Origin: an uncultured Blastocatellia bacterium
Lineage (GTDB): Bacteria > Acidobacteriota > Blastocatellia > HR10
Length of the DNA: 64,000 nucleotides
Direction of reading: 5' to 3'
NCBI GenBank assembly: GCA_937934295.1
Contig: CALHAI010000005.1
Coordinates: forward strand, 119,272 to 183,271
Each line of letters begins with the position of its first letter. The first letter of the stretch is position 1. Shown here one piece after another: positions 821 through 64,000 of the stretch. The notes beneath the pieces are model-generated. The model was not told where the DNA came from. It saw only the letters and a list, made by a program, of their open reading frames with translations, and ran no database searches. A program made the position numbers and the translations under genes.

Positions 821-1017
821 CCCCCGATGTTGGGGGATAAGCCCCCCCATCGGGTAAAATCCCCCAACATGATTGGGTGAAATCCCTCCCATCATCGCTG
901 CAAGAAGAGGCGCCGAAGAGACAAGCGCTCGGCCCCTACCGCCTCAGCGACCTCAAATCGTCCCCGGAGCTTCTTCGGAGCCCTGAGCGAGAAGGCCCGC
1001 TATGGGTGTAATCCCCC
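821..1017. repeat. array of short G-run/AT-loop/C-run hairpin motifs (GGG-TRWAAT-CCCCC type), 4-5 copies
   Basis: CCCCC-GATGTT-GGGGG (821-836), GGGGG-ATAAG-CCCCCCC (832-848), GGG-TAAAAT-CCCCC (852-865), GGG-TGAAAT-CCCTCCC (875-890), GGG-TGTAAT-CCCCC (1004-1017). All lie in the divergent intergenic region between coxB and the multiheme operon. Confidence 0.45.
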
Positions 1018-1134
1018 ACCCGGTTCGGTTATACTTGTCTCGGTCAACCCGATCATTCTGCGAGTGATAGTCATGTTCGAGCGCGATGCTTGAGGACGGC
1101 ACGCGGCTTGCATATGCAATGCGAGTTGATTTCG

Positions 1135-4727: not shown

Positions 4728-4730
4728 ACA

Positions 4731-5762: not shown

Positions 5763-5771
5763 GAGGGGGAT

Positions 5772-15744: not shown

Positions 15745-15917
15745 GCGGCGAGGGCATCGTCGGCGTCCGAGCGGCTCCCGGGCGAGGATGAGGTGCTCGG
15801 CGCGATCCGTCGAGGCTTTCCATGATCTCCACCAAGGCTCCGCGCGCGGATGATCTCCTCGGTTGCTCTCGAACTCCCCTCAGCTTACAATGGGCCCCGA
15901 CGAAGGAGGGAAGGGCG

Positions 15918-17624: not shown

Positions 17625-17670
17625 CGTCGTGCATGGGGCTCGGACTCCACGCCCCTGGAATCGAAGGGGA

Positions 17671-18822
17671 TCATTCCAGCCGCCGTCGGAAGCGCCAGAT
17701 GCTCACGCTGAAGACGGTCAGGCCAAACAGCAGCAGCGCCATCATCTGCGGCCAGAGGACGGCGATCCCCGTCCCCTTCAAAAACACCCCCCGCACGATC
17801 TCCAGGAAATACCGCACGGGATTCGCATAAGTGAGATACTGTACGGGCACGGGCATATTCCGAATCGGGAAGGCGAATCCGCTCAGCGTGAAGGCCGGCA
17901 TGAAGAAGAAGAACGAGGCGAGCATCGCCTGCTGCTGCGTCTGAGAGATCGTCGAGAGGAAGACGCCCACGCCGAGCGTCGTCATGACAAAGAGGATCGC
18001 GCTGAACAGGAGGACGACGGCGCTCCCCCGAAATGGGACGCGAAATATGAGCAGCGCCGCACTCGTCACCAGAACGACATCCACAAGACCGATGAGGGCG
18101 AACGGCGCGGTCTTCCCGAGGACGAATTCCACCGGGCGAATGGGCGTCACCAAGAGTTGTTCCATCGTCCCCAGCTCGCGTTCGCGCACGATGGCCATCG
18201 CCGTGAGGATCAACGTGACGATCGTGATGATGTTGACCAGAACACCGGGGACGAAATAGTTCCGGCTGCGAAGATCGGGATTGAACCAGACGCGCGTCCG
18301 CACGTCCAGCTCAGGAATGGCGATCGGCGCGCCGCGCTCGAAGGCGAGCGCTCTCAACGCGCGTTGTTCCCGCTCGACCATCACCTCGTCGGCATAGCGA
18401 AGGATGACACGCGTCGCGTAGGTGGTGAGGATGGAGGCCGTGTTCGAGTTCGTCCCCTCGATGAGGATCTGCACGGCGACCGTCTCGCCTCGCTTCACCT
18501 GCTCGGCGAAGCCCGGCAGCACGCGCACGAACATGAGGACGCGCCCGCGGTCCAAAAGCTCACGCCCCTCCTCCTCCCGCGCGGGCGTGGCGACCACGCG
18601 AAAATGGGGCGAGCCGTCAAACGCCGCCCGCAGGGCGCGACTGGCCGGCGTCCGATCGCCATCCATCCACGCGATTGGCGCGCGCTCCACATCCAGATTG
18701 ACGGCATAGCCGAAGATCGTGAGTTGAATCACTGGGGGCAAAAACAACAGGACGCGCATCCGCGGCTCGCGCAGCGCCTGCCGCCACTCCTTCCGAATCA
18801 TCTCTCGAATGCGAGCCCACAC
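17671..18822 (-). CDS. ABC-2 family transporter permease (YbhR/YbhS-like)
   Basis: N-terminal cytoplasmic region, one TM helix, a large periplasmic loop, then 5 TM helices: the ABC-2 topology. Confidence 0.8.
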   Translation of the reverse strand: MWARIREMIRKEWRQALREPRMRVLLFLPPVIQLTIFGYAVNLDVERAPIAWMDGDRTPASRALRAAFDGSPHFRVVATPAREEEGRELLDRGRVLMFVRVLPGFAEQVKRGETVAVQILIEGTNSNTASILTTYATRVILRYADEVMVEREQRALRALAFERGAPIAIPELDVRTRVWFNPDLRSRNYFVPGVLVNIITIVTLILTAMAIVRERELGTMEQLLVTPIRPVEFVLGKTAPFALIGLVDVVLVTSAALLIFRVPFRGSAVVLLFSAILFVMTTLGVGVFLSTISQTQQQAMLASFFFFMPAFTLSGFAFPIRNMPVPVQYLTYANPVRYFLEIVRGVFLKGTGIAVLWPQMMALLLFGLTVFSVSIWRFRRRLE

Positions 18823-18823
18823 C

Positions 18824-19957
18824 TCACGCCACTCCTCGCCGCACGCGCCGCGTGGCGAGGGCGAAGACCACTCCCGCGTACCCGATCAGAAACACCACCT
18901 CCCCCACGAGCAACTCCAGGCCGATCCCCTTCAGAAAGAGGCCACGCAAGATCACAATGAAATATCGCGCCGGGACGAGATAGGTCAGTCCTTGCACCAT
19001 CGGCGGCATGTTCTCGATGGCGAAGATGAAGCCCGAGAGCAGAAAGGCCGGCAGAAACGATGTGAGCACGCCCAGTTGATACGCGAGCACTTGCGAGCGC
19101 ACGAGCGCGGAGATGAGCACCCCCCACCCGAGCGCGCCAAACAGAAAGAGCCCCCCCATCAGGATGACCAGGAGCGGATCGCCGCGCAGCGGCACGCGGA
19201 AGAAGGCGACACCCACTACGAGCGCGATGAGCATATCGAGCAGGCCGATCGTGAAGAACGCGAGCATCTTCCCGAGCACGATCTCAGAAGCGCGCACTGG
19301 CGTCGAGAGCAATTGCTCCATCGTCCCCACCTCCCACTCGCGCGCGATGGTGAGCGAGGTGAGCAAGGCGGCAATGATCATCAGGATGATGGCGATCAAT
19401 CCGGGGACGATGTAATGGCGCGACCGCAGCTCGCTGTTATACCAGACGCGCACGCGCGGCTCCAGCGGAGGCTCCACTCTCGTCCCCGTCGCGCGCCGTA
19501 GGACCGAGATCTGCCACGCTCCGGCGTGCGCCCGCAGCACGGCCTCCGCGTAGCCGAGAGCAATCGAAGCCGTATTCGAATCGCTCCCATCGAAGAGGAG
19601 CTGGATCGAAGCGCGCTCCCCACGAAGCCATCGGCGCGAATAGTCGGAGGGGATCACCAGCGCCATCAAGCAGCGATTGCGGTCCATCTCGCGCGCGATG
19701 CTCGCTTCGTCTTCGACCATGCCGATCACGTCAAAGAAGCGCGAACCGGCGAAGCGCGCGATCAGCTCTCGACTCTGCGGGCTGTCGTCGGCATCCCGCA
19801 CGAGCATGGGGATGCGATCCACGTCCAGCCGCAGCGCATACCCGAACAGCAGGAGCAGGACCACGGGCACGGCGAGCGCCAACAGCAGGCTCCTCGGATC
19901 GCGCCGAATGTGGAGAAATTCCTTCCGAGCCATGGCCCACGTCCGCCGCCACGTCAT
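18824..19957 (-). CDS. ABC-2 family transporter permease (second copy)
   Basis: Paralogous to the downstream permease. 4-nt overlap with the upstream ATPase gene. Confidence 0.8.
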   Translation of the reverse strand: MTWRRTWAMARKEFLHIRRDPRSLLLALAVPVVLLLLFGYALRLDVDRIPMLVRDADDSPQSRELIARFAGSRFFDVIGMVEDEASIAREMDRNRCLMALVIPSDYSRRWLRGERASIQLLFDGSDSNTASIALGYAEAVLRAHAGAWQISVLRRATGTRVEPPLEPRVRVWYNSELRSRHYIVPGLIAIILMIIAALLTSLTIAREWEVGTMEQLLSTPVRASEIVLGKMLAFFTIGLLDMLIALVVGVAFFRVPLRGDPLLVILMGGLFLFGALGWGVLISALVRSQVLAYQLGVLTSFLPAFLLSGFIFAIENMPPMVQGLTYLVPARYFIVILRGLFLKGIGLELLVGEVVFLIGYAGVVFALATRRVRRGVA

Positions 19958-28925: not shown

Positions 28926-29927
28926 TCAATCGTATCGGAGCGAGAAATGATTGTATCCGCGCGGGGCGAGCGGTTCCCGATGTCCGGCATGCTCCAGGTA
29001 CACCTGACCGGGATCTGAGATCGTGCGCCCGATGCAGGTCAGTGGGAGATCGGGGAATCGCATACGTGCTTCCTCAAGACACGGCGTGTGTTCTTCCCTC
29101 ACGGTGAAGAGCAGCTCGTAATCCTCTCCTCCATGCAGGGCGAGCGTCAAGGGATCAGCGCCCAATGCGCTCGCTTCCGCGACCACCGGGAGCGCCTCGG
29201 CGCGGAGCACAGCCCCCACGTGACTCTCCTCGCACAGACGGCGGAGGTCGGAAGAAAGACCATCGCTCAGATCGATCATCGCGCGAGCCACGCCTTCCTC
29301 AGCCAGATACTGAGCGAGCGAGAGCCGCGGCTCCGGCGCCAGATGCGCCAGGATCGGACGGCGCAGATGTTCCGGCAGCTCGTCGCTCAACCGATACCCG
29401 GCATCCAGAAGCCGCAATCCCAGGGCCGAGAGCCCGAGTTGCCCGGTGACGTAGATCGCCTCTCCGGGCATGGCACCATCGCGGCGCACGGCCCGATGCG
29501 CGGCGCACTCGCCGATGAGGGTCACGTGCACACTGAGCCCTAGGGGCGACGCCGCGAGATTCCCACCAATGAGGATCACAGCGTATCGGTCGGCTGTCGC
29601 CACGATCCCCTCCAGAAGGCCCTCCAGATACGCGTCCTCGAGGTCCCCGGGGACGGCGAGGGAGAGCACGAAGAACCGAGGCCGTCCCCCCATCGCGGCG
29701 ATGTCGCTCAGATTCACGACGAGCGCCTTGTGGCCGAGCAGCCGCGCCGGCGTGTACTCACGGCGAAAGTGAACGCCTTCGATGAGGGCGTCCGTCGTCA
29801 CCAACCACCACTTCCCTGGAGAACGCTTGAGGATCGCCGCATCATCGCCAATCCCCATGACGATCTCGGGAGCGAAGCGGCGCGCCATCTCCCGAATCCG
29901 GCGGACCCATTGGAGTTCACTCCTCAT
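28926..29927 (-). CDS. thiL: thiamine-monophosphate kinase
   Basis: GIGDDAAILKRSPGKWWLVTTDALIEGVHF... has the AIR-synthase-related fold typical of ThiL. Confidence 0.85.
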   Translation of the reverse strand: MRSELQWVRRIREMARRFAPEIVMGIGDDAAILKRSPGKWWLVTTDALIEGVHFRREYTPARLLGHKALVVNLSDIAAMGGRPRFFVLSLAVPGDLEDAYLEGLLEGIVATADRYAVILIGGNLAASPLGLSVHVTLIGECAAHRAVRRDGAMPGEAIYVTGQLGLSALGLRLLDAGYRLSDELPEHLRRPILAHLAPEPRLSLAQYLAEEGVARAMIDLSDGLSSDLRRLCEESHVGAVLRAEALPVVAEASALGADPLTLALHGGEDYELLFTVREEHTPCLEEARMRFPDLPLTCIGRTISDPGQVYLEHAGHREPLAPRGYNHFSLRYD

Positions 29928-31323
29928 GCGACGCTCCTACGGAACGGCCTCCGCGCAGGGCGGATTCCAGCGGGATCTGGTACTTTTGAAGCTTGCGATA
30001 GAGCGTGCGCCGATCAATACCGAGGATCTCCGCAGCCTTCGCATGATTCCCTCCCGTCTCCTCAAGGACGCGCAAGATGTGCCGCTTCTCCACCTCCGCG
30101 AGGGTGCGGGGCTCGCGCTCCGGAGGCGCCGACCGTTCCATGGGGGCGATCCCGCTCAGGTGCGGGGGAAGATCACGAATCGTGAGGACGGGCTCGCTGC
30201 TCATGGTGAGCGCGTATTCGACGGCGTTTTGCAGCTCGCGCACATTTCCCGGCCACGAATAACTCATCAGCAGCCGCATGGCTTCGGTGGAGAATCGCCG
30301 CACCGGCTGCCCGTTCTCAAGGGCGTAGCGCGTCAAGAAATGCTCGACCAAAAGCGGGATGTCCTCGCGCCGCTCGCGCAGCTCGGGCAGATAGAGCGTG
30401 ACGACGTTGAGCCGATAGTAGAGGTCCTCGCGAAACTCGCCGCGACGTACGGCCTCCTCCAGGTCCCGATTCGTCGCCGCGATGATGCGCACGTCCACGG
30501 GGATGTTCTCTCGCCCCCCCACGCGGCGGATGACCTTCTCCTGCAGCGCGCGCAAGAGCTTCACTTGCAGGTCGGGCTTGAGCGCGTCCACCTCATCGAG
30601 AAAGAGCGTGCCTCCATGCGCGACCTCGAACAACCCGGGCCTTGACTCGGTCGCCCCGGTGAACGCCCCGCGCACGTGGCCGAAGAGTTCGCTCTCCAGC
30701 AGTTCCGTCGGCAACGCCCCACAGTTGATGTCCACAAACGGCCCATTCGCTCGAGGGCTGTTGTAGTGAATGGCGCGAGCGACCAACTCCTTCCCCGTCC
30801 CCGTGCGCCCGACAATCAAGACGGTCGCCGATGAGCGCGCCACGCGCTCCAAGATGCGGAACAACTCCTGCATCGGTTTGCTCTTGCCGATGATGTTGCC
30901 GAAGCGATAGCGCTCGGTGAGCTGCTGTTGAAGATCGGCCACGCGTGCTTGCAGCCGCCGTCGTTCCAAGGCGCGCTCAATCCGCATCTTCACATCATCC
31001 AGTTGCAGCGGCTTACTCAGATAATCATCCGCCCCCAGGCGCACGGCCTCCACGGCCGAATCGATCGAGCTGAAGGCCGTCATCATGAGGATGATCGTCT
31101 GCGGGAAAGCCCGTTTGATTTCTTGAAGGACCTCGATGCCGGAACGGTCCGGGAGCCGAATATCGCTCAGGACGATGTCGAAGACGCGCGCGAACATCTT
31201 CTGGAGGGCTATCCCAGCCTCGGTCGCCGTCTCGACCTCAAACCCCTGCCGTCGCAAAAAGCGGGCGAGCACCTCCGCCAGTTGCCCATCGTCCTCGATG
31301 ATGAGCACGCTCAATCGCTCCAT
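29917..31323 (-). CDS. sigma-54-dependent response regulator (NtrC family: receiver + AAA+ with GAFTGA + HTH)
   Basis: Receiver domain begins MERLSVLIIEDD. Walker A GRTGTGKE, GAFTGA, C-terminal Fis-type HTH. The track ORF is extended 28 codons upstream. Confidence 0.85.
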   Translation of the reverse strand: MERLSVLIIEDDGQLAEVLARFLRRQGFEVETATEAGIALQKMFARVFDIVLSDIRLPDRSGIEVLQEIKRAFPQTIILMMTAFSSIDSAVEAVRLGADDYLSKPLQLDDVKMRIERALERRRLQARVADLQQQLTERYRFGNIIGKSKPMQELFRILERVARSSATVLIVGRTGTGKELVARAIHYNSPRANGPFVDINCGALPTELLESELFGHVRGAFTGATESRPGLFEVAHGGTLFLDEVDALKPDLQVKLLRALQEKVIRRVGGRENIPVDVRIIAATNRDLEEAVRRGEFREDLYYRLNVVTLYLPELRERREDIPLLVEHFLTRYALENGQPVRRFSTEAMRLLMSYSWPGNVRELQNAVEYALTMSSEPVLTIRDLPPHLSGIAPMERSAPPEREPRTLAEVEKRHILRVLEETGGNHAKAAEILGIDRRTLYRKLQKYQIPLESALRGGRSVGASHEE

Positions 31324-31458
31324 ACCCCCATCTGGAAAGTGTGCGCACATCGCGCGCGCGAGCGCAAGGTGCGCGCTTCCACCGCCTGTTCCGAACGCTC
31401 CCGACACCGTTCGCGTTGGTTGGGACGCCCTTCGAGCGAGGATATCCTCCAGAGAGGC

Positions 31459-33018
31459 TCACCCGGACTCGCTCGCCCCAAGGCCCGCGGATTCCGCCCG
31501 AAGGGGGAATCGGAGGCGAAAGCGCGTCCCCTTCCCCGGCGCACTCTCCACCTCGATCGTCCCCTCATGCGCTTCGACGATCTGGCGCACGATAGCCAAG
31601 CCCAACCCCGTGCCCCCGCGATCCGCGCGCGTGGTGAAGAAGAAGTCGAAGATGCGCGGGAGATATTCCGGCGGAATGCCCGTGCCCGTATCCTCGACCG
31701 TGAGGTGAATCGGTTTGGGCGTGCCCGCGAGCATCTCCGTGCGCACGATCAAGCGCCCCCCTTCCGGCATGGCATGAATGGCGTTCGTGAACAGGTTCAG
31801 CAAGACGTGTTGCAGTTGCCCTTCATCGGCCCATAACGGCGGCAACGCGGGATCCAGATGCGTGACGACTTCGATGCGCGCGGCGCGGAAACTATGGCGC
31901 AGCAGCGCGAGCGTCTCCGTAATGAGGGCGTTCGCATCAAGCGGGCGAAACGTCGGCGGTGCCTGGCGCACGAAGTCCAATAACCGACGCAGCATCTCCG
32001 CGATGCGCCGTGCCTGCGCCGCGATGCTCCGCACGTCGGCCGCCATCGGACTGTCCGGTGGGATATCCAGGAGCAAGGCCTCCGCGAGATTCGCGATGAC
32101 CGAGAGCGGCGTGGCCGCTTCGTGGGCGATGCCCGAGACGATCTGTCCGGCCAACACCATGCGCTCCGCGTGGCGCGCTTGCCATTCCAGATGCCGCTCT
32201 ACCGTGACATCGCGGAAGCTGTGCACGAGCCCTAAGATCTCCCCGCGCACCGACTTCACCGGCATGATGAGGACGCGAAACGTGCGTCCTGTCGCCGCCT
32301 CGTGCACCTCCTCCTCATGCGGCGCGCCGGTGCTCAGGACCCGCTCATGACCGCATAGGCCGCGTTGTCCGAATCGCTCCCACACGCGGTGGCAGGATTG
32401 CCCTAACCAGTGCTCGCGCTCCAGACCGAAAAGTCGCGCGAACGCTTCGTTCACGTGCTCGAGGATCCCCTCGGGCGTCGTGAGCACCAACCCATCGGTG
32501 ATGGCATTGAAGGTCGCTTCCCAGCGTGCGCGCGCGGCCCGCATCTCATCGAGCAAAAGCCCCTGTCCCGAGAGCGCGCGTTCGAGCAGATCCGTCCGCT
32601 CGGCGACCTTCGCCTCGAGGAGCCGTTCCCATCGCGCGCTGGTCGCTGCCCAAACCCTCACGCGACAGGCCCATTCGGCTTCATCCTCGATCGGGAGGAC
32701 ATCATCGACCTCAAGGTAAACCCGTTCGCACTCGGAGAGACCGTGAAGAAGGATGGGCGCGAGCGTCACCCGACTCCGCACGCGCTCGATCCAAGATCGA
32801 ACGCGATCGGGAGAAGCCCGCCCATCCACGAGAATGAGGCGCACGTTCGAGAACGGAGGTTCCGACTCCTCCGTTTGATCCGCCGCGATATCCCATCGAA
32901 TCGCCGAGAACCCGAGCCGTTGCAAGCGTGCGCAGAGTCGCTCGCCTTCGACCGGATCCGCCGCGATGACGAGCGCAGATGCCCGTTCGATCGCTTCGTG
33001 ATCCTTCATGAGAGACAT
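31459..33018 (-). CDS. sensor histidine kinase with N-terminal receiver-like domain, PAS, HisKA and HATPase_c
   Basis: H-box ...SGIAHEAATPLSVI..., N/G1/G2 boxes (NLFTNAIHA, DTGTGIP, GGTGLGLAIV). Confidence 0.8.
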   Translation of the reverse strand: MSLMKDHEAIERASALVIAADPVEGERLCARLQRLGFSAIRWDIAADQTEESEPPFSNVRLILVDGRASPDRVRSWIERVRSRVTLAPILLHGLSECERVYLEVDDVLPIEDEAEWACRVRVWAATSARWERLLEAKVAERTDLLERALSGQGLLLDEMRAARARWEATFNAITDGLVLTTPEGILEHVNEAFARLFGLEREHWLGQSCHRVWERFGQRGLCGHERVLSTGAPHEEEVHEAATGRTFRVLIMPVKSVRGEILGLVHSFRDVTVERHLEWQARHAERMVLAGQIVSGIAHEAATPLSVIANLAEALLLDIPPDSPMAADVRSIAAQARRIAEMLRRLLDFVRQAPPTFRPLDANALITETLALLRHSFRAARIEVVTHLDPALPPLWADEGQLQHVLLNLFTNAIHAMPEGGRLIVRTEMLAGTPKPIHLTVEDTGTGIPPEYLPRIFDFFFTTRADRGGTGLGLAIVRQIVEAHEGTIEVESAPGKGTRFRLRFPLRAESAGLGASESG

Positions 33019-55822: not shown

Positions 55823-57127
55823 ATGCGCCTCGGAGATCGAAGCGAGGAGCCACGATCCGCTCGCCTGACAAGAGGCGCCGAGGCACCGATCCGCATCGCG
55901 CGCGTCCTCTCCCGACTGAACATCGGCGGACCTTCACGGCACGTCATCCTGCTGACGGCTGGACTCAACGACGAGTGCTTCCGTTCCACACTCATCGTCG
56001 GCCGCGAGAATGCCCGCGAAGGGCATCTCTTTGAGAAGGCGCGCGCGCACGGCGTGGAACCGATCCGGCTCGCCTCACTGCAGCGCGACGTGCACCCCCT
56101 GGATGACGGGCGAGCGTTCCTTCATCTCTTTCGCCTCTTCCGCCGACTGCGTCCGCAGATCGTTCACACCCACGCCTCGAAGGCCGGAGCCTTAGGCCGA
56201 CTCGCCGCCCGATGCGCTGGCGTCCCAATCGTCGTGCACACGTTTCATGGGCATACGTTCCATTCGTACTTCCATCCGCTTCTCTCCTCTCTCCTCCGCG
56301 CGCTCGAACGCACCCTGGCGCGCTGGACGACGCGCATCATCACGCTCAGTCCGACACTCAAAGAGGAATTGATTCGCTATCGGATCGCCCCGGCTGAGAA
56401 GATCGACGTCATCCCGCTCGGTTTGGAACTCGAGCACTTCGCCGAGAGCGATCGCTTTCGCGGCGAGCTCCGTCGCCAACTCGGTTTGGACGAAGCCATC
56501 CCCCTCGTCTGCTCGGTCGGTCGACTCGTGCCGGTGAAGAATCATATGCTGCTTCTTCAGGCCTTCGATCGAGTCCTGCAACACCGACCCGAGGCGCATC
56601 TCCTTCTGGTCGGAGACGGCGAACTGCGTCCTCGCCTTGAAGCGATGAGCGACCGCCCCCCTCTTCGCGGACATCTCTCGTTCCTCGGCTGGCGGGAGGA
56701 TCTGGAGCGCATCTACGCCGATGCGGATCTCGTCGTGAACAGCTCGCTCAACGAAGGAACGCCCGTCGCCGTGATCGAAGCCATGGCAGCGGCTCGGCCC
56801 GTCATCGCGACGGCGGTCGGGGGCGTGCCCGATCTCATTCGCCATGGGGAGACCGGATGGCTCGTCCCACCGATGGACCCGGAGGCGCTGGCCGCGCAGA
56901 TCCTCTATGTCCTCGACCATCCCGAGGAGGCCGCGCATGTCGCTCGGGCGGCACAAGCCTTCGCTCTCGCTCACTTCCGAGCTGACCAGCTCATCCAGCG
57001 TATGCGAGAACTGTATCTGACCCTCCTCGCATCGCGAGAAGGCGAGCACACGCCCCTTGTCCACGCATCCGATGACTCGCCCAGGACAAGTCGCACGATC
57101 TCACCGACTCGGCGAAGGCAATCCTGA
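55823..57127 (+). CDS. glycosyltransferase family 4 (GT-B fold)
   Basis: C-terminal E-x7-E-like motif region (NSSLNEGTPVAVIEAMAAARPVIAT), GGVPDLI. The start is approximate. Confidence 0.75.
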   Translation: MRLGDRSEEPRSARLTRGAEAPIRIARVLSRLNIGGPSRHVILLTAGLNDECFRSTLIVGRENAREGHLFEKARAHGVEPIRLASLQRDVHPLDDGRAFLHLFRLFRRLRPQIVHTHASKAGALGRLAARCAGVPIVVHTFHGHTFHSYFHPLLSSLLRALERTLARWTTRIITLSPTLKEELIRYRIAPAEKIDVIPLGLELEHFAESDRFRGELRRQLGLDEAIPLVCSVGRLVPVKNHMLLLQAFDRVLQHRPEAHLLLVGDGELRPRLEAMSDRPPLRGHLSFLGWREDLERIYADADLVVNSSLNEGTPVAVIEAMAAARPVIATAVGGVPDLIRHGETGWLVPPMDPEALAAQILYVLDHPEEAAHVARAAQAFALAHFRADQLIQRMRELYLTLLASREGEHTPLVHASDDSPRTSRTISPTRRRQS

Positions 57128-57973
57128 AGACTGGCCCTCGCATGAAGGACGACACCTTCCCCGAAGGAAATCTGTACTCGACAGAGAAGTGCTTTGTCGA
57201 GCGATCTCCAAGACTTGCCGCCTTTCTGGAAACAGCAGTATCTTCAGCTGTCAAGCCTTAACCGGCTCTGCCTCCCAAGCCGCGACCCCCACAGACAGCA
57301 GCACGCCAAGCCCCTCTCATCCCAACCCTCACGCATCTCTATCCCCCTCACCATCCTCTCCAACCTCCTGGCCTTCACCTCTTCGCCAAAAAGTTGCTTG
57401 AAGGCAGAAAAGAAACTCCTCCTCTCCACCCCCCCATAGCCAAGCCTCTCCTTCCACCCCAAGGGATCTTTTCCATATGCCCTGACCACTTCCTCCCTTT
57501 CCCCTCCACATCTTCCCCTCACCTTGGATCCCCACCTCTATCCCATTCCTCCCTCTCCCTAAGCCTGGAGCCCAGATCGGGGTCAGGCTGACTCGGGTAT
57601 CTTCAGGGAGAGGATGCTGTGGGGCAAAGAGGGAGATAAGCTGGCTCAAACCCCTTGCTAACCCCTCATGCTGCCGATACGGCCCCCCCTCCGGATCCCC
57701 CAAAATCACATCAGGCCGTGAGGATAGCGAAAGAGACGCCCATTCTTTTTCTCCCCTTGCCGGTCTGAGAGGCGTCCAACGGCTAAGAGGATTTCCCCCG
57801 TCGGACATGATGCTCGCTGTACTCGTTCCAGTTCCTTTCAGGCTTTCTCCCCTTTATTGTATCCCCTCGTCTTCATCCTGACCAAGACCAGGCCGCCGCA
57901 AGCCCCTGGCTTGAGCCACGGGGATAAGGCGGCCGGTTTTCAATAGGTGGCCGCGGGATGGTATACTTGGCTT

Positions 57974-58069
57974 ATGCCGCAGTACACAGCGGAATGCAAG
58001 TTGAACAACGTCTCAAAGAAGCCTCTTTCCCAGCGCATCCACGCCTGTGAGTGTGGCGTGGAGATGTAA
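57974..58069 (+). pseudogene. decayed C-terminal remnant of an IS200/IS605-family TnpB (zinc-finger region), flanked by in-frame stops
   Basis: MPQYTAECKLNNVSKKPLSQRIHACECGVEM* resembles the TnpB hallmark K.LS.R...C..CG preceding DRD.NAA.NI (here CxC with one residue lost; the downstream frame reads RNLYLAFLA). An in-frame stop lies 30 nt upstream and the remainder of TnpB is absent. Confidence 0.35.
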
Positions 58070-58440
58070 CGCAATCTCTACTTGGCGTTTCTGGCGTGGT
58101 GCGTGAAGGAGAATGGTTTGCTCCACGCAGATCTGGCGCGCGAGCGTTGGTCGGGTGCGGCAGCGGCTCCTGCGGGCGGCGTGGAGCCGTGCCACCCAAC
58201 CTGCGAGTGCGAGGGCGTTTCGCCCTTCCTCCTTCGGGGTGTATCCCCGGAGTCGGAGCGGGTCGCCCGCGCAAGAGGGGATAGCCAAAACCGAGGTCCG
58301 GGATGGTGTAGCGGAGGTGCCGACCTCTGGCGAGAGCCCGGAAGAGGTTGCGGTGGTTCCCCTCAGAACCCCCCGGCTCGAGCCGTGGGGAGGTTCAGAC
58401 CCCAGCTGCAGGTTATGCAATACAGCACAGAGGAGCACAT

Positions 58441-58468
58441 CCCCCGCGCGAGGTGAATCGCGCGGGGG
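58441..58468. terminator. very stable GC hairpin CCCCCGCGCGA-GGTGAA-TCGCGCGGGGG 12 nt beyond the stop of the minus-strand gene at 58480 (terminator and/or IS-end hairpin)
   Basis: 11-bp perfect stem, 6-nt loop. No clear U-tract on either strand. Confidence 0.4.
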
Positions 58469-58479
58469 ACGAGTGGGCC

Positions 58480-59301
58480 TCACGGATGCGGCGTGTGGCA
58501 TTGCACGCAGTTCATCTTGGCCTTCACATTGTCCATGCCCTTATCGCCGTGACACGTGAGACAGGTGGCGAGGGATTCCGGCGGAACATAAATGCCCCGG
58601 AACTGTCCATCGGCCCATTGATTCAGAAGCTCGACGGCGCGAGCTGCGACATCCCCCGTGAGCCGGCCGCATCGCTCCTTTCGCTCAAGCGATGAGGCGC
58701 GGAATCCCGAATGTTCGCACCACTTGGTCACTGAGATGTGGCATAAGGGAGACCCCGAAGCGTTCTGCGGCAGTGGCTGCGTATACTTCTGGACGAAGAA
58801 CTGTCCGGTTTGGGCGTACTGATTGCTGATGTCCGAGGGCAGGAGCGCTTGCGTGTACCACCCCTGCAATTCGTGGATGAGCTGATCGGCCGTCTGCTTA
58901 TCGCACACGAGATTGATGGCTGCACAGGCGCCTAGGAGTGCCCCGCACGACCCACCCCATCCGACGACGCCACCATGTCCCCAGATCATCATCTCGGGCG
59001 GGATGAGCGTGTACGGGTATCCAACGGCCTCGCGCAGCGCGACGACGATCGCGCGAAACGCGCCATAGGCGCACCCGTAGCCCTTCTCCCAATACCCTTG
59101 GTGACCGAGCTTGCGCACGTACTCGGGATCGAGCTTCTTATAGGGCCATGGCCAGGGGGGAAGCTCCACCTGGGCTTTCCCCTCGCGGCCGATGAGGCTC
59201 ATTCCGACTACACCCGCCGCAGCACAGGCGGCACATTGGGTCGTCAGCGTCAGAAATTCCTTCCGCGTAAGTTTCCGCTTCATAGCGCTTCCCTCCATCA
59301 T
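58480..59301 (-). CDS. C_GCAxxG_C_C family redox protein with C-terminal dihaem c-type cytochrome extension (two CxxCH), exported
   Basis: Signal with Tat-like RKEFL motif followed by AACAAAGVVG. The region ...GYGCAYGAF...SCGALLGACAAINLVCDKQ... matches the C-x-GCAxxG-x-C-x-C family pattern. C-terminal CLTCH and CVQCH. Confidence 0.7.
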   Translation of the reverse strand: MMEGSAMKRKLTRKEFLTLTTQCAACAAAGVVGMSLIGREGKAQVELPPWPWPYKKLDPEYVRKLGHQGYWEKGYGCAYGAFRAIVVALREAVGYPYTLIPPEMMIWGHGGVVGWGGSCGALLGACAAINLVCDKQTADQLIHELQGWYTQALLPSDISNQYAQTGQFFVQKYTQPLPQNASGSPLCHISVTKWCEHSGFRASSLERKERCGRLTGDVAARAVELLNQWADGQFRGIYVPPESLATCLTCHGDKGMDNVKAKMNCVQCHTPHP

Positions 59302-59411
59302 GGCTTTCGCCTTACTTTATTAGCAAGTGGCGTGCCAAGACAAGCATTCTTGATTCTCCCAGAGTTAGCGCGCCGATGGCGCGGCCACCTGCTGAAAAAC
59401 GCAACAGGTCC

Positions 59412-59493
59412 GTTGAATTCCTCAACATGGCTAAGCGCGCCAAGCGCCACAACTTCCCACATTCACCGCCCACCTCGTGTTGAGGAATTCAAC
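59412..59493. promoter_or_regulatory. two copies of 15-bp palindrome GTTGA-attcc-TCAAC (second inverted: GTTGAggaatTCAAC), centres 67 bp apart, in divergent promoter region
   Basis: 59412-59426 and 59479-59493. The extended 16-nt match is TGTTGAGGAATTCAAC. Confidence 0.5.
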
Positions 59494-59631
59494 AGTTCGT
59501 GCCGAAGGACACTCCCATCGGCCAGGTGCGGGTGCACATCCCCCTGATGATCAACGACTTCCCGAGCATTGGGAGAAGAATGCGGTACGGCACTCCGATT
59601 GCATATATCTTCGGCTGAGGGAGGACATCCG

Positions 59632-60651
59632 ATGAAGATGAAGAGCGCCGACAAGTGGCTGAGAGAGCGACCCACAGAAGCGATGGCCTCTTCCCCCCTC
59701 TCGGTCGTCTCCGAAGGCGAACGCGCTTCTTCTCCGCTCAAATGCGTGTGGATGCTCGCTGGAGTCGTGGATTACAAGCTCTGTGATAGGGATTATGAAT
59801 GTGAGCAGTGCCCATTCGACCGCGCCCTTCGGGAATGGGCGGCGATTGGTGAACGAGAAGCTCGACGACCCCTTGCCGAACAAGCGAAGGAAGACCGCAC
59901 CAAGGATCATGGGCTCGTCGGATGCCCGCTCTGCAGAGAGCTTGAAGGCTGCTCTCAGGAGCCCATCTCGGCACGCGAGCGTGTCCGCGTCAAAAGGGGA
60001 TTCCGCATAGCGGAGGCGCTCTTCTACCATCCGGCGCATCTCTGGGTGCGTGTCGAGTGGCGAGGGCAGGTGCGCATCGGATTGGACGATTTCGGGCAGT
60101 GGCTTCTCGGGCGCATCTATCACGTGAGATTCCCCGATGTCGGCGCGCGGGTGATCGCTGGACATCCGTGCGGCGAGCTGGCATATCACGCGGGAGAGAT
60201 CGCCCTGCCCGCGCCGGTGACGGGGATGATCCACCAACTCAACGAGAAGCTCATGCGGTACCCCTCTCTTGTCAACCACGATCCCTATGGCGAAGGATGG
60301 ATGATGATCTTTCAACCGGAGCACCTGCATGAGGATTTGCAGCAGCTGCTGTACGGGGAGCAAGCGCTGGCATGGTATGCACGAGAGATCGCGAGGTTGC
60401 ATCAGGAGATCCACATCGCTTTGTGCGCCATGGGAACGTCCCCGGAAGCCCTCGCCGGCCGCACGCTCCAAGACGGGGGCGTTCCCGTTTCTCCCTCTTC
60501 TGAGTGCGAGCTCATGGCGTCCACCACGAGGAAGTCGCTCACCGAGCGGCTCAACCCCACGTGGTGGGCAGAGGTGATCGCGCAGTTTTTGCAACCGCAA
60601 GCCGGGCGCTCCAGAAGTGCGCCCGAGAGGGAAACTCGGCACAGGAGGTGA
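59632..60651 (+). CDS. GcvH-fold (glycine-cleavage H / lipoyl-like hybrid barrel) protein with N-terminal Cys-rich region; lipoyl-lysine absent
   Basis: RBS GAGGGAGG before the ATG at 59632. N-terminal CVWMLAGVVDYKLCDRDYECEQC and GCPLCRELEGC. The core HLWVRVEW...IGLDDFGQ...VRFPDVGARV...PVTGMIHQLNEKL...NHDPYGEGWMMIF matches the GcvH pattern, but the lysine position is H/A. The track start at 59569 is probably too early. Confidence 0.65.
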   Translation: MKMKSADKWLRERPTEAMASSPLSVVSEGERASSPLKCVWMLAGVVDYKLCDRDYECEQCPFDRALREWAAIGEREARRPLAEQAKEDRTKDHGLVGCPLCRELEGCSQEPISARERVRVKRGFRIAEALFYHPAHLWVRVEWRGQVRIGLDDFGQWLLGRIYHVRFPDVGARVIAGHPCGELAYHAGEIALPAPVTGMIHQLNEKLMRYPSLVNHDPYGEGWMMIFQPEHLHEDLQQLLYGEQALAWYAREIARLHQEIHIALCAMGTSPEALAGRTLQDGGVPVSPSSECELMASTTRKSLTERLNPTWWAEVIAQFLQPQAGRSRSAPERETRHRR

Positions 60652-60654
60652 GCT

Positions 60655-61359
60655 ATGGTCGCCTTCTTCGTCATTCTCACGATCATCGGGTTCATCCTCG
60701 TGGACTCCTTCGTCCAATGGGTCGAAGCCCGACAGGGGCTGACCTTGAGGCGAACGGCGCCGCGTCCCGAGCTTGTCCCGGCACTCGCGTTGGAAACCAT
60801 CTCCGTTCCCGCCGGCCTCTTCCTGGACGAGGGCCACACGTGGGTCCGCCTGGAGCCGAGCGGACGGACGCTGATCGGCATGGATGAGTTCGTGCGTCGA
60901 GCGATCGGTCGCGTGGACGCCGTGGAGTTGCCGAACGTCGGCTCCGTCGTTCGACGCGGCGATCCGCTGTTCACCGTCACACAAAATGGCCGACGGGCCG
61001 TTTTCCGCGCACCGCTCACTGGCGTCGTGAGCGCCGTCAACGAGAACCTCGCGCGCCTTCCTGAAACGGGACGGATGGACCCATATGAAGAAGGATGGGT
61101 GTGCGCACTGAAGCCGAAAGACCTGGCGGTGCATCTGCGTCATCTTTTCATCGCCGAGGAAGCACGGGCATGGCTTCGGTGGGAGACCGAACGCTTCAAG
61201 GAGTTCTTGACTCGGTGTCCGATGCCGCAGTCGGCTCTCGGACAGGTCTTGCAAGACGGCGGGCAGTGGGCCGAAGGCATTTTGGAGATGCTCGATGAAG
61301 CCGGCTGGGAGGAATTCGCGCGAACGTTCCTGCAAAGCCCGCGTTCTTCGGCAGAATAA
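60655..61359 (+). CDS. membrane-anchored GcvH-fold protein (second paralogue), lipoyl-lysine absent
   Basis: Starts 3 nt after the upstream stop. N-terminal TM helix MVAFFVILTIIGFILV. Core HTWVRLEP...IGMDEFV...VELPNVGSVV...PLTGVVSAVNENL...RMDPYEEGWVCAL. Confidence 0.65.
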   Translation: MVAFFVILTIIGFILVDSFVQWVEARQGLTLRRTAPRPELVPALALETISVPAGLFLDEGHTWVRLEPSGRTLIGMDEFVRRAIGRVDAVELPNVGSVVRRGDPLFTVTQNGRRAVFRAPLTGVVSAVNENLARLPETGRMDPYEEGWVCALKPKDLAVHLRHLFIAEEARAWLRWETERFKEFLTRCPMPQSALGQVLQDGGQWAEGILEMLDEAGWEEFARTFLQSPRSSAE

Positions 61360-61640
61360 GGAGGGCGGTCAAAGGCGCGGCTTCTGGCATTGGCGGCGGA
61401 GCGCGCGCCGACCGCTCCCTTTGTGTCCGAAATCAGTCACTGGCGGGCTCTGGTCCGTTGCACCTAGGAAGCGGCTCTCGATGGGGGATTTGCCCCACCT
61501 CAGCTTCTCGACAGCAGGAGCGATGCCATCGTGGTGCTGTAAGTGCTTGAAGTTAAGCCTTTCGGAAGCGGGCCTGCGAAAGGCACGAGGAGCTGGCCTG
61601 TGGCATGGAAATTGCATCCCTACGAAAAGGGGGGGCGCGT

Positions 61641-62447
61641 ATGGGCGACAAAAGGGGCCTTCTCTTCGACGCGACCTTGTGCATCGGATGCGGGGCGTGC
61701 TACGAGGCGTGCAAAGAGCGAAACCAGCTCCCACGGACGGCGGCACACTTTCTGGATGATCGGCTTTCGGATCAAACCTACACGGTTGTGAAGAGACGTG
61801 GAGGGCGATTCGTCCGCCAGCTCTGTATGCATTGCGAGGTTCCGACGTGTGTTTCCGTGTGTCCGGTCGGCGCGCTGGAGAAGACGGCCACAGGTCCGGT
61901 CATCTATCACGAGGCGCGCTGCATCGGATGCCGGTATTGCATGCTCGCGTGTCCCTTCGGCATCCCGAAGTACGAGTGGAGGAAGATCTTGCCTCGCGTC
62001 CGAAAGTGCGATCTCTGTGCGGATCGCCTCGCGGCCGGGCGCCCTCCGGCGTGCGCTGAGGTCTGCCCGACGGGAGCGACACGATTTGGCGATCGCCAGG
62101 CGCTGATCGAAGAAGCGCGCGCGCGAATCCGCACCCATCCTCAAAAGTATGTGCCGAGGATTTACGGCCTGGAGGAAGTCGGCGGTACATCGGTGCTGCT
62201 CCTCTCGGACATCCCCTTCGAGCGCCTCGGCTATCGGACCGATCTGCTGTCGGAGCCCTTGCCACTGTTGACGTGGCAGGTCTTGCAGAAGATCCCCAAT
62301 TTCGTCGCTGTCGGCAGCGTGTTGTTGGGAGGCATTTGGTGGATCACGAATCGGCGTCGAGAGGTCCAACTCCGAGAGCGCCAGCAGCGGGAGGTTCGCG
62401 AGCCCTCGGCGCCTGAATCCGCCGATCCATCGCATGAAGAGCCATGA
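61641..62447 (+). CDS. 4x[4Fe-4S] ferredoxin-type iron-sulfur subunit with C-terminal TM anchor (FdnH/HybA/PsrB-like), no N-terminal signal peptide
   Basis: AAGGGGGGG before the ATG at 61641. Four Cys clusters (CIGCGACYEAC, CMHCEVPTCVSVCP, CIGCRYCMLACP, CDLCADRL...CAEVCP). C-terminal hydrophobic helix FVAVGSVLLGGIWWI. Confidence 0.85.
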   Translation: MGDKRGLLFDATLCIGCGACYEACKERNQLPRTAAHFLDDRLSDQTYTVVKRRGGRFVRQLCMHCEVPTCVSVCPVGALEKTATGPVIYHEARCIGCRYCMLACPFGIPKYEWRKILPRVRKCDLCADRLAAGRPPACAEVCPTGATRFGDRQALIEEARARIRTHPQKYVPRIYGLEEVGGTSVLLLSDIPFERLGYRTDLLSEPLPLLTWQVLQKIPNFVAVGSVLLGGIWWITNRRREVQLRERQQREVREPSAPESADPSHEEP

Positions 62448-62487
62448 TCCCCCGCGCGTCGGGCGCGCGGGAGAGGTGGGGACGAAT

Positions 62488-64000
62488 ATGATGCGCTGGA
62501 GCTTTCGCCGACCGGGTTTTTGGCAACTCGTATTTGCGCTCATCCTGGGCGTTGGCCTCTATAGCACGGTCGTCCGGTTCACCGGCGGCCTGGGAGCGAG
62601 CACGGCCTTGAGCGATGCCTTCCCCTGGGGATTGTGGATCGGCTTCGATGTGCTCTGCGGAGTAGCCCTGGCAGCCGGGGGATTCACCCTCAGCGCCGTC
62701 GTCTACATCTTCAATGTCGAGCGGTTTCGACCGATCATTCGTCCGACGATCCTCACGGCGTTCCTCGGCTACGCGCTCGTCATCGTGGCCTTGCTCTTCG
62801 ACCTGGGACGCCCCTATCGCATCTGGCACCCATTGGTGATGTGGAACCCGCACTCGGTGATGTTCGAAGTGGCGTGGTGTGTCATGCTCTACACGACGGT
62901 GCTCGCGCTGGAATTCAGCCCGATGGTATTCGAACGCTTGAGGCTCGAGCGGCCGCTGCGAATCCTTCACGCGCTGACGGTGCCGCTGGTCATCCTCGGC
63001 GTCATCCTCTCGACGCTTCATCAGTCCTCGCTCGGATCGCTCTACTTGATTGTCCCGGAGAAACTGCATCCGCTCTGGTATTCGCCGCTTTTGCCCATCT
63101 TCTTCTTCATCTCGGCGATCGCGCTCGGTTGCGCGATGCCCATCTTCGAGTCATTTCTGAGCTATCGGGCATTCCGAAAACGGCTGGAGATTGAGCTGCT
63201 CGCCGATTTGGGGAAGGTGATCGTCGTCACATTGGCCGTATATCTGGTCCTGAAAATCCAGGACTTGGCCGGACGGGGCGTGCTCTCCCGCATTGTCGAA
63301 CCAACATACGAGGGGCGAATGTTCCTGGCCGAGATGCTGCTCGGCGTGATCGGTCCGATCCTGTTGCTCAGCCTCCGTCGCATTCGGACGGATCACTTCG
63401 GCCTCTTCGTCTCCGCCGTTCTGGTCGTTCTCGGTTTCATTATGAATCGGCTCAATGTGAGCATCACGGGGATGGAAGCGTCTTCCGGCGTGTCCTACTT
63501 CCCGAGCTGGACGGAGCTTTCGGTGACGCTGATGATCGTCGCCCTGGGGTTCGCGCTCTTTGGCGCGGCAGCGAAATATCTCCCCGTCTTCCCGGAGAAG
63601 GAGCGTCTTCCGGCACCCACCTTGGTGGAGCCTCCAGCGGTGGCTGTCCTGCGGCGACCGTGGATTGGCACGACGCCCCTGGTGTTGATCCTCGGCGGGC
63701 TCTTCTTCATCGGCGCCATGGGATCGGCCTATAGCGGCCTTCAGCATCGCGAACGAGCACTCGCCACCGCTCCGGCCAGCGAGGAGAGCGAACCCGAGAT
63801 CGCCGACGGCTTAGAGCGCTTTGAAGTCCCTCCGGACGTCACATTCCCTCAGGGAGAGGCCAGTCCCGGACCGGTTACATTCCGACACGCCTCGCACCTC
63901 AATTGGGAGAGGCCCAATTGCACGATCTGTCATCACGAGCCGTTCCGCATGTTGAAGGCATTCGGGAGCGTGACCGCATCGCCCGCCCGCGATTTGCATG
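62488..64000 (+). CDS. NrfD/PsrC/HybB-family polysulfide-reductase-type membrane subunit with extra C-terminal TM helices and a fused cytochrome c7/c3-like haem domain (partial; continues beyond window)
   Basis: Not in the ORF track because there is no stop in the window. Read in frame from ATG 62488: MMRWSFRRPGFWQLVFALILGVGLYSTVVRFTGGLGAS...NRLNVSITGMEAS... (8+ TM helices), then ...FEVPPDVTFPQGEASPGPVTFRHASHLNWERPNCTICHHEPF.... The last stretch matches the c7 pattern V.F.H..H......C..CH. Confidence 0.8.
   Translation, partial: MMRWSFRRPGFWQLVFALILGVGLYSTVVRFTGGLGASTALSDAFPWGLWIGFDVLCGVALAAGGFTLSAVVYIFNVERFRPIIRPTILTAFLGYALVIVALLFDLGRPYRIWHPLVMWNPHSVMFEVAWCVMLYTTVLALEFSPMVFERLRLERPLRILHALTVPLVILGVILSTLHQSSLGSLYLIVPEKLHPLWYSPLLPIFFFISAIALGCAMPIFESFLSYRAFRKRLEIELLADLGKVIVVTLAVYLVLKIQDLAGRGVLSRIVEPTYEGRMFLAEMLLGVIGPILLLSLRRIRTDHFGLFVSAVLVVLGFIMNRLNVSITGMEASSGVSYFPSWTELSVTLMIVALGFALFGAAAKYLPVFPEKERLPAPTLVEPPAVAVLRRPWIGTTPLVLILGGLFFIGAMGSAYSGLQHRERALATAPASEESEPEIADGLERFEVPPDVTFPQGEASPGPVTFRHASHLNWERPNCTICHHEPFRMLKAFGSVTASPARDLH

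Follow-up and report, generated by a model that had tools for sequence, protein, structure and literature searches.

A divergent gene cluster occupies the right-hand end, from position 58480 onward, of the 64,000-nt window analysed here (contig CALHAI010000005.1, from an uncultured Blastocatellia bacterium). Leftward it comprises a gene for a split-Soret-cytochrome-c-like dihaem protein; rightward it comprises genes for two GcvH-like proteins, a four-cluster iron-sulfur (FeS) ferredoxin and an NrfD-family membrane protein. A sequence-only reading of the window had described these five genes, their shared promoter region and the repeated palindromes within it, and open reading frame (ORF) listing with translation, combined with Pfam and NCBIfam scans, found all of them to be real and bore out the assignments of the GcvH fold and of the C_GCAxxG_C_C domain. 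That reading had also allowed for further components beyond the window, which ends inside the NrfD gene. They were supplied by a metagenomic contig of 590 kb that matches the window identically and was located by exact-product look-up of the FeS and GcvH-like-2 proteins: the NrfD gene is followed by genes for a sensor kinase, a sigma-54 response regulator, an archaemetzincin (peptidase family M54) and HypA, in that order. For comparison, a pattern scan of one genome per species, with an alignment of GcvH-like-1 relatives as the query, gave 44 loci (L-numbers below, L001 being the locus of the window), and their ORFs were searched with the proteins of the window to establish gene content. We consider it a tentative but leading possibility that the cluster is a self-regulated sigma-54 gene set arranged in two layers, a redox core and a control layer.

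Gene content and sigma-54 promoters of the locus

The two GcvH-like genes lie first in the rightward direction. In GcvH-like-1 (59632-60651, + strand; 339 amino acids), a Cys4 N-terminus precedes a GcvH fold that lacks the lysine, and a long helix leads on to TLQDGG in the C-terminal part. GcvH-like-2 (60655-61359, +; 234 amino acids), which starts 3 nt past the GcvH-like-1 stop codon, is anchored by a transmembrane (TM) helix at residues 2-20; its GcvH fold, likewise without the lysine, is followed by a helix and VLQDGG. After a gap of 280 bp, the FeS gene (61641-62447, +; 268 amino acids) encodes a four-cluster [4Fe-4S] ferredoxin of the HmcB/HybA type with 16 cysteines in four ferredoxin motifs, no signal peptide, and a C-terminal TM anchor (residues 218-236) followed by the basic tail WWITNRRREV. 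Its annotated start is the ATG at 61641, internal to a 280-amino-acid ORF; the N-terminus reads MGDKRGLLFDATLCIGCGAC, and an in-frame upstream stop codon excludes a longer one. NCBIfam scored the protein at 262 bits for HmcB (cut-off 420) and 215 bits for HybA (cut-off 263), the HybA alignment running to residue 260 of 268, and among solved structures it matched FdnH (1kqf_B, E 2.5e-34) as well as PsrB.

The NrfD gene, of the HmcC/HybB type, overlaps the FeS gene by 14 nt; it begins at 62434 (+), is cut by the window edge at 64000 and would end at 64083, for a full length of 549 amino acids. Its NrfD domain matched Pfam at E 5e-24 (85.9 bits; cut-off 25.8), and the protein scored 355 bits for HmcC (cut-off 550) and 312.6 bits for HybB (cut-off 450). 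Ten hydrophobic segments, forming the 10-TM core, are followed by an eleventh TM helix and then by a trihaem c7 domain with three CxxCH motifs in about 70 residues, only the first of which falls within the window. The c7 domain reached 40.6 bits for Pfam Cytochrome_C7 (cut-off 24.8), and its nearest solved relative is GSU1996 (3ov0, E 4e-20). Lysines and arginines in the NrfD loops number 25 inside against 8 outside, which would place the N-terminus inside and the c7 domain outside, in agreement with periplasmic maturation of haem c.

Many anaerobic respiratory enzymes are built around an NrfD/FeS module as their membrane core. No molybdopterin, pseudo-molybdopterin or other catalytic subunit was found here in the called genes 10 kb to either side, nor among the neighbouring ORF families conserved across the 44 related loci. 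The lack of an ordinary Psr/ACIII-type catalytic subunit, remarked on in the sequence-only reading, thus extends through 10 kb of downstream sequence.

On the opposite strand, the leftward gene (58480-59283, -) encodes 267 amino acids; an ATG at 59301 would give 273. The protein matched C_GCAxxG_C_C (PF09719) at E 3.9e-13 (50 bits; cut-off 27). Its C-terminus carries a pair of CxxCH motifs, CLTCH and CVQCH, that correspond to the pair in 1H21. The match to this structure (1h21_A, E 9e-45, residues 44-264 against 17-234) has GCxxGxF, CGAL, LCHISVxKWC and ERCGRLT as further motifs in common. As the match to NCBIfam NF047622 (E 6e-59, 199.6 bits) fell below the equivalog cut-off of 400, we class the protein on these alignments as a homologue, not an equivalog, of split-Soret cytochrome c. 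The N-terminus, KLTRKEFLTLTT, precedes a hydrophobic stretch and holds the signal core LTRKEFLTL, an RK variant of a signal for twin-arginine translocation (Tat), TRKEFL, that is kept in all five orthologues of this lineage (the window and L007-L010). A Tat-like signal on a haem c protein had been thought an odd pairing, but it is already known for the split-Soret family: predicted Tat signals are on record for archaeal members (PMC4429474), and SO0939 stands in a refined list of Shewanella Tat substrates (PMC3623810).

Promoter scans gave a coherent picture of the cluster's control. Perfect -24/-12 matches number three in 64 kb against 0.21 expected, and two of the three lie in the single 330-bp spacer between the divergent genes. 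One element, GGCACGCCACTTGCT (59322-59336, -), is upstream of the split-Soret-like gene and has equivalents before the orthologues in L007-L010; another, GGCACTCCGATTGCA (59589-59603, +), lies 29 nt before the GcvH-like-1 ATG and is kept in L007, L012, L018, L020 and L021. A third sigma-54 element, the TGGCAT variant TGGCATGGAAATTGCA (61601-61616, +), lies 24 nt before the FeS start and is kept in L007 and L011. Between the two divergent, outward-pointing promoters are all of the upstream activator sites (59390-59494), of which two are perfect TGTTGA-N5-TCAACA-type palindromes (59411-59427 and 59478-59494) and a third is degenerate (59390-59406); the two perfect sites include a perfect 16-nt inverted repeat (59412-59427 / 59478-59493). 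The palindrome motif is unique to this spacer in the 64 kb, where none would be expected by chance, and TGTTGA-N5-TCAACA stands at the same place in L007-L012 and L018. Scans for sigma-70-like sites in the divergent spacer and for terminators gave nothing above expectation, and rpoN lies about 9 kb upstream of the cluster. Together, the conserved sigma-54 promoters and TGTTGA-N5-TCAACA sites indicate self-regulation, and on this pattern the cluster almost certainly consists of three sigma-54 units driven by its own activator. The palindromic operators of the sequence-only reading therefore stand, and the sigma-54 promoters, the dedicated two-component system and the protease, all of which had gone unseen, are to be added to them.

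The genes recovered downstream include both halves of that two-component system. The sensor kinase (HAMP-HisKA-HATPase, 566 amino acids) has a periplasmic loop with CxxCH and Cx4CH motifs that are invariant in 25 orthologues. This loop matched, weakly, the Pfam class-40H chemoreceptor sensor Mcp40H-20_sensor (20.8 bits; cut-off 27), a model that we take to be the Geobacter GSU0582/GSU0935-type sensor. Judged by these motifs, the kinase is probably a dihaem sensor of redox state or of a ligand. The activator (453 amino acids) joins a receiver domain (REC) to Sigma54_activat and HTH_8. The archaemetzincin scored above the NCBIfam cut-off for its family (Peptidase_M54), and M54 proteins in all loci have an intact HExxHxxGxxH and a second Cys4 site. 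In L001, L007 and L011 the M54 gene is directly followed by HypA, with no hydrogenase nearby; past HypA in L001, on the opposite strand, are pta, ackA and a 5-haem cytochrome gene (15531-19381 of that locus, beyond the window end).

Conservation and genomic context of the cluster

The full set (GcvH-like-1, GcvH-like-2, FeS, NrfD, kinase, sigma-54 regulator and M54) was present in at least 22 complete loci among the 44, and 14 more loci agree with it but are cut by contig ends. Sources within the Acidobacteriota are Blastocatellia, Pyrinomonadaceae, Terriglobia and Vicinamibacterales; others are Ignavibacteria, Bacteroidota, Planctomycetota and some bins with other labels, and the GcvH-like family occurs in Desulfobacterota as well. 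Gene order varies between groups, running GcvH2-FeS-NrfD-GcvH1-kinase-regulator-M54 in Ignavibacteria/Bacteroidota, and the fusion of c7 to NrfD is confined to Acidobacteriota. The neighbourhood is thus not peculiar to one genome, as the sequence-only reading had allowed it might be; it is conserved across phyla, and we rejected chance juxtaposition because gene order is conserved across loci.

The leftward gene behaves differently. Apart from the window, only its four closest relatives (L007-L010) have this gene beside the cluster, and about 30 other loci lack it, so the split-Soret-like gene is a lineage-specific accessory rather than a core subunit, which counts against the earlier proposal that the C_GCAxxG_C_C protein helps to replace the catalytic subunit.

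In L030-L032, L036, L046 and L047, genes for multihaem cytochromes lie beside or within the cluster, some of them CbcL-like fusions. In Pyrinomonadaceae, three genes for 8- to 10-haem proteins lie upstream, and a 4-haem gene and a CbcL-like fusion of nine haems to cytochrome b lie downstream; one Ignavibacteria locus has a 4-haem gene after the cluster, and a 13-haem CbcL-like fusion sits within the cluster in L046 and L047. A 5-haem protein is encoded downstream in L001 and L008, and the L007 locus holds only its 2-haem C-terminal part.

Several individual loci and regions deserve record. In L047 (2920-20864; an Acidobacteriota metagenome-assembled genome, MAG), the system occurs three times over in adjacent copies or variants. 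One is a GcvH pair, another is a full cluster together with a CbcL-like 13-haem gene, and the last is a second kinase-M54-regulator group that faces a divergent GcvH-NrfD-FeS group. In two Desulfobacterota MAGs (L035, 553-3192; L037, 2550-5996), a gene of the GcvH-like-1 type, in L035 with two tandem Cys4 modules, lies beside genes for a nitronate-monooxygenase-like flavin mononucleotide protein and a haem-less cytoplasmic C_GCAxxG_C_C protein. These loci lack FeS, NrfD and kinase genes and represent a second, different context in which the GcvH-like and C_GCAxxG_C_C families are paired. L011 (CAZTMT010000001.1) comes from a bin labelled 'Clostridia'; its cluster proteins share about 53% identity with those of the Blastocatellia loci, the flanks are syntenic with these loci, and the label looks doubtful. 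For L042 (CAVQFE010000009.1), from a bin labelled 'Actinomycetota', identity is about 35%. In the window itself, the 1.3 kb between the glycosyltransferase and split-Soret-like genes (57130-58480) contains a sole ORF of 159 amino acids (57329-57808, -), for which Pfam gave no match. GC skew is strongly negative (-0.18) over 56-58 kb, and an Rfam scan of 56900-61700 returned nothing credible, with one chance snoRNA match below threshold.

Lysine-less GcvH-fold proteins

Both GcvH-like proteins exceeded the Pfam GCV_H cut-off of 22 bits (GcvH-like-1, E 1.5e-22, 80 bits; GcvH-like-2, E 1.8e-17, 64 bits) and, with 82.9 and 65.4 bits, missed the NCBIfam H-protein cut-offs (117 / 115.85 bits). An AlphaFold2 model of GcvH-like-2 (pLDDT 81) superposed on the H-proteins of T. 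thermophilus and E. coli with a TM-score of 0.91 and a root-mean-square deviation (rmsd) of 1.4-1.7 Å (1.7 Å for 1onl_A), and Foldseek matched it to H-proteins and biotinyl/lipoyl domains only. Alignment to solved GcvH places an alanine at the lipoyl-lysine position of GcvH-like-1 (YHAGE; family consensus HQAGE) and a glycine or variable residue at that of GcvH-like-2. Among 109 diverse representatives of the GcvH-like-1 family the hairpin is unconserved and carries a lysine in none, and the four cysteines and one tryptophan are invariant and DGG nearly so. The absence of the lipoyl-lysine from both copies, first noticed in the window, is thereby borne out. We rejected the hairpin histidine as a phospho- or cofactor-acceptor: it is conserved in only 22 of the 109 representatives, all close relatives.

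The Cys4 motif of GcvH-like-1, C-x12-C-x5-C-x2-C, lies in an invariant CxWMxAGxxxYKLCDRxYxCxxCPFD. By hhalign (probability 100%, E 5e-46), GcvH-like-1 and GcvH-like-2 are paralogous families, and the 196 columns of their alignment take in the GcvH domain, the long helix, xLGxT(L/M)QDGG and a short C-terminal helix pair; Pfam searches of the isolated Cys4 segment and of both DGG-containing C-termini gave no match. A profile search of 1.84 billion representatives recovered 703 clusters (50% identity) of the family at E <= 1e-30, and members in the hit lists bore no name, that of glycine cleavage H protein, or 'hypothetical'. GcvH-like-1 has neither a signal peptide nor a TM helix. GcvH-like-2 has no signal peptide; its N-terminus is uncharged and basic residues follow the helix, the pattern of an N-out/C-in protein. 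Both domains are accordingly predicted to be cytoplasmic.

Domain fusions tie the family to phosphorelay proteins. Proteins of 14 clusters carry the entire GcvH-like-1 module joined to HisKA-HATPase, in the place of the REC-PAS input of closely related soluble kinases; the neighbourhood of this fusion holds a Tat-bearing FeS gene, NrfD, GcvH-like-2 and the fusion itself, with M54, sigma-54 regulator and haem kinase genes convergent to them. A second fusion (21 members), TM-REC-GcvH, is a GcvH-like-2 protein with a receiver domain placed after its anchor and ahead of its GcvH domain. The gene for this protein directly follows the orthologous haem kinase gene and faces FeS-NrfD, in a lineage without the sigma-54 regulator, GcvH-like-1 and M54. 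The DGG motif is similarly specific, being found in 57 GcvH-like hits, in small TM proteins and on a single NrfD tail, with about three stray hits in 7542 ORFs. The small proteins, each with a single helix, are encoded just before the FeS gene in Tat-type clusters and carry PQLG(F/Y/L)T(M/L)A(D/N)GG, as does the one NrfD C-terminal tail (L034 7424-7690 and 8332-9873; L056 4649-4873; L057 330-554 and 4505-4816). A separate observation concerns P0234 (MFQ6102322.1), a protein of 1391 amino acids from an Anaerolineae MAG that combines three GcvH domains with FAD_binding_4/FAD-oxidase_C, a 4Fe-4S dicluster and two CCG domains (HdrD-like).

Taken together, the fusions, the DGG motif and the predicted cytoplasmic side link the GcvH-like proteins to phosphorelay signalling and to the inner face of the membrane module, and speak against substitute catalysis; they are probably regulatory adaptors. 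A signalling role also agrees with L012 and L022, where the GcvH pair persists beside kinase, regulator and M54 although FeS-NrfD is missing. This bears directly on the sequence-only reading, in which the GcvH-like and C_GCAxxG_C_C proteins replaced the catalytic subunit of a complex iron-sulfur molybdoenzyme (CISM) and turned over some substrate. Its description of a quinone-linked complex without a classical catalytic subunit remains a fair one for FeS, NrfD and c7. The replacement itself we consider very improbable. It would account for the lack of a classical catalytic subunit and for a split-Soret-like protein that appears periplasmic, redox-active and co-regulated with the cluster in this lineage, and C_GCAxxG_C_C genes do lie 2-3 kb from GcvH-like-1-type genes in the two Desulfobacterota loci. 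However, the split-Soret-like gene is missing from so many related loci, and the GcvH-like proteins, which lack signal peptides, would be on the cytoplasmic side whereas FeS, c7 and the kinase haems would be on the periplasmic one, with an NrfD that has no cofactor to pass electrons across the membrane. Moreover, an unconserved hairpin without lysine offers no attachment point for a swinging arm, and the fusions to kinase and receiver domains point to signalling.

Candidate roles and relation to known systems

Where the FeS domain resides affects every account of the cluster. Genuine Tat signals (RRxFLK) are present on the FeS subunit of distant cluster members (L034, L044, L049, L056 and L057), so the ancestral orientation is periplasmic. 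The main-family FeS proteins (the window, L013, L014, L036, L052 and others) have no Tat signal, yet they keep the C-terminal anchor of their periplasmic relatives. We therefore place the domain provisionally in the periplasm, by homology, from the HybA/HmcB alignment through the anchor and the Tat signals of distant members. The split-Soret-like protein would be the only candidate in this lineage for hitch-hiking export of FeS.

A signal-less FeS protein could also suggest that FeS-NrfD assembly is the dedicated task of the GcvH pair and M54, as with HybE/HybD/HybF in the hyb operon: they would hold FeS for cluster insertion and membrane targeting, and process a DGG-containing precursor. HypA after M54 in three loci, the intact M54 sites in all loci and the suitability of DGG as a possible processing site are in keeping with such a function. 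Yet L012 and L022 retain the GcvH pair and M54 without FeS-NrfD, clusters whose FeS does bear a Tat signal retain GcvH-like proteins and M54 nonetheless, and kinase and receiver fusions would be unexpected for chaperones. We regard an assembly role as doubtful.

Our best explanation, in which we place somewhat less than even confidence, is a quinone:cytochrome module of the Hmc/Nhc/Qrc or Cbc kind, controlled by the haem kinase and sigma-54 activator and overlaid by a cytoplasmic GcvH-like/M54 regulatory layer. The four-cluster ferredoxin, tail-anchored and periplasm-facing by homology, would be seated on a cofactor-less ten-helix NrfD that holds the quinone site; the Acidobacteriota NrfD would have gained the eleventh helix and a periplasmic trihaem c7. 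Electrons could then move between menaquinone/menaquinol, the FeS chain and the c7 haems, and onward to soluble or membrane multihaem cytochromes, the divergent and co-regulated split-Soret-type dihaem protein being the likely periplasmic partner in this genome. The module would operate as do Nhc/Hmc/Qrc or Geobacter Cbc, with the cytochrome fused to the membrane subunit and no need for a molybdopterin subunit. The dihaem kinase would phosphorylate the NtrC-type activator, which would bind TGTTGA-N5-TCAACA and fire the three sigma-54 promoters, for ssc, for gcvH1-gcvH2 and for FeS-NrfD-kinase-regulator-M54. On the cytoplasmic face, the GcvH-like pair and the archaemetzincin may serve as signalling or regulatory adaptors, with GcvH-like-1 sensing via its Cys4 centre, GcvH-like-2 as a membrane-tethered output or docking partner, and the common DGG motif as a docking site or an M54-processing site.

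Several observations weigh against this explanation. Every equivalog cut-off for HmcB, HmcC, HybA and HybB was missed, so function can be transferred by analogy only. The main-family FeS, that of the window included, has no Tat signal and may be cytoplasmic; no conserved Tat-bearing neighbour that could pilot it was found, only the split-Soret-like gene of the closest relatives qualifying. FeS-NrfD is missing from L012 and L022, which have the GcvH pair along with kinase, regulator and M54, so core and control layer are separable, and L036 has the four structural genes with no kinase or regulator nearby. The role given to the GcvH-like proteins draws on domain fusions and gene order, and the AlphaFold2 model of GcvH-like-1 is of low confidence outside the GcvH domain, the Cys4 region included.

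The same core could instead be an input device, in which FeS-NrfD(-c7) passes the redox state of quinone or of periplasmic cytochromes through the FeS chain to the kinase haems. The dihaem domain of the kinase would take the place of the missing catalytic subunit, and the GcvH-like proteins would be cytoplasmic outputs or adaptors, regulated here at the level of transcription and, in the REC fusion, by phosphorylation. No catalytic subunit is present in the family's loci, the haem kinase accompanies FeS-NrfD in nearly all of them, and a minimal four-gene form (FeS, NrfD, haem kinase and TM-REC-GcvH) exists without any transcription factor. The majority of the cluster's conserved genes encode signalling proteins, some lineages carry a second kinase on the GcvH-like-1 module, and the regulon looks local, as the operator motif is confined to the local spacer in the window. 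On the other hand, the kinase is kept without FeS-NrfD in L012 and L022, the fused c7 and the dense multihaem/CbcL-like surroundings resemble a route for bulk electron flow, and an inducible sigma-54 promoter directly before FeS-NrfD suits an effector better than a constitutive sensor. We know of no NrfD/FeS module that has been shown to feed a kinase. A sensor complex of this kind seems to us unlikely, if far from negligible.

Rather unlikely, in our estimate, is the more particular proposal that NrfD and the four-cluster ferredoxin, with or without c7, were recruited as a signal-transduction front end that relays quinone/cytochrome redox state to the dihaem kinase, the lysine-less GcvH-fold proteins being a new class of cytoplasmic sensor and output modules, one type with Cys4 and the other membrane-tethered, both with DGG, whose state would be set by phosphorylation, as in the REC and kinase fusions, and by a DGG-recognising archaemetzincin. 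Should this hold, a role that has nothing to do with lipoate would be added to the GcvH fold, and bacterial archaemetzincins would have a first substrate class. Members of the GcvH-like family cannot be glycine cleavage H proteins and are not to be counted as glycine-cleavage or lipoate components in metabolic reconstructions. An understanding of this system could reveal how electron traffic between quinone and periplasmic or extracellular cytochromes is regulated in soil and sediment bacteria, what role a lipoate-less GcvH fold plays and what a first substrate of bacterial archaemetzincins might be.

A second cytochrome locus lies at the opposite end of the window. The operon-like run at 827-7838 includes a CbcL-like gene that joins c7/c3 haems to a Ni_hydr_CYTB cytochrome b domain (1090-3255, +), a NapC/NirT-like gene (3252-4727, +), a Paired_CXXCH/NrfB/MtrC-like gene (4731-5762, +) and a gene with no Pfam match, possibly for an outer-membrane component (5772-7838, +). 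It has a sigma-54 -24/-12 box at 1098-1112 and a 12-nt perfect inverted repeat, ATGTTGGGGGAT, at 827-838 / 859-870, unlike the operator of the cluster studied here. We rejected membership of this operon in the same regulon: the sigma-54 box is present but the inverted repeat is different. A second sigma-54 response regulator (29917-31407, -) is encoded next to a PAS histidine kinase (31459-33018, -), and this pair could serve the cytochrome operon at 1090.

The closest relatives of the redox core are known systems. The Nhc/Hmc complexes of Desulfovibrio combine the NhcA/HmcA cytochrome, the NhcB/HmcB FeS protein and the NhcC/HmcC NrfD protein. Compared by way of the NCBIfam models NF045715 and NF045714, the cluster resembles them in its periplasmic multihaem c, four-cluster C-anchored FeS, 10-TM NrfD and absence of a molybdopterin subunit, HmcB and HmcC being its best-scoring curated families. 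It differs in that its cytochrome is a trihaem c7 fused to NrfD, FeS is without Tat signal and equivalents of HmcD/E/F are absent; to our knowledge, GcvH-like proteins, haem kinase, sigma-54 regulator and M54, all present in the cluster, are not known from Hmc/Nhc operons. HybA-HybB of E. coli hydrogenase 2 likewise shows full-length homology, including the HybA anchor and the HybB 10-TM core, and HypA is downstream in this lineage; the locus, however, lacks hydrogenase subunits and a Tat signal on FeS, and its membrane subunit carries a fused c7. Split-Soret cytochrome c of D. desulfuricans ATCC 27774 (1H21; NF047622) matches the leftward protein over its full length, with the C_GCAxxG_C_C cysteines and two C-terminal CxxCH motifs, whereas the window protein has an RK rather than an RR signal, is under sigma-54 control and has an NrfD module next door.

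In Geobacter sulfurreducens, CbcBA is a quinone oxidoreductase induced at low potential from a sigma-54 promoter, with BccR as its REC-sigma54-HTH regulator (bioRxiv 10.1101/2021.04.15.440034). CbcBA/BccR and other Cbc systems share with the cluster an inner-membrane quinone:periplasmic-cytochrome module, a sigma-54 promoter, a REC-sigma54-HTH regulator and multihaem neighbours, and CbcL-like fusions lie beside the cluster in several loci, with one at 1090-3255 of the window. In contrast, CbcB is a dihaem b-type cytochrome and not NrfD/FeS, and no GcvH-like protein, M54 or haem kinase is reported for CbcBA.

The GcvH-like proteins are comparable to GcvH, LbpA and GcvH-L of Streptococcus (5A35), with which they share the fold (TM-score 0.91, rmsd about 1.5 Å) and core structural residues. 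They differ in having no lipoyl-lysine, an unconserved hairpin, an added Cys4 domain or TM anchor and a C-terminal DGG, and in a context that is one of signalling and redox rather than of glycine or lipoate metabolism. The searchable literature held no description of GcvH-like proteins combined with NrfD/FeS, haem kinase and M54, nor of the Cys4 and DGG motifs of lysine-less GcvH-fold proteins, which is not proof for all literature; within that scope, the suggestion that the gene combination is an undescribed system is upheld. The redox core, then, is of a known kind, Hmc/Nhc/Hyb-like, and what is new in it is the miss of the equivalog cut-offs, the fused c7 and the signal-less FeS, while the GcvH-like/kinase/M54 layer appears undescribed, and the constant partners of the core, lysine-less GcvH-fold proteins, a haem kinase and an archaemetzincin, appear to be without precedent in these systems.

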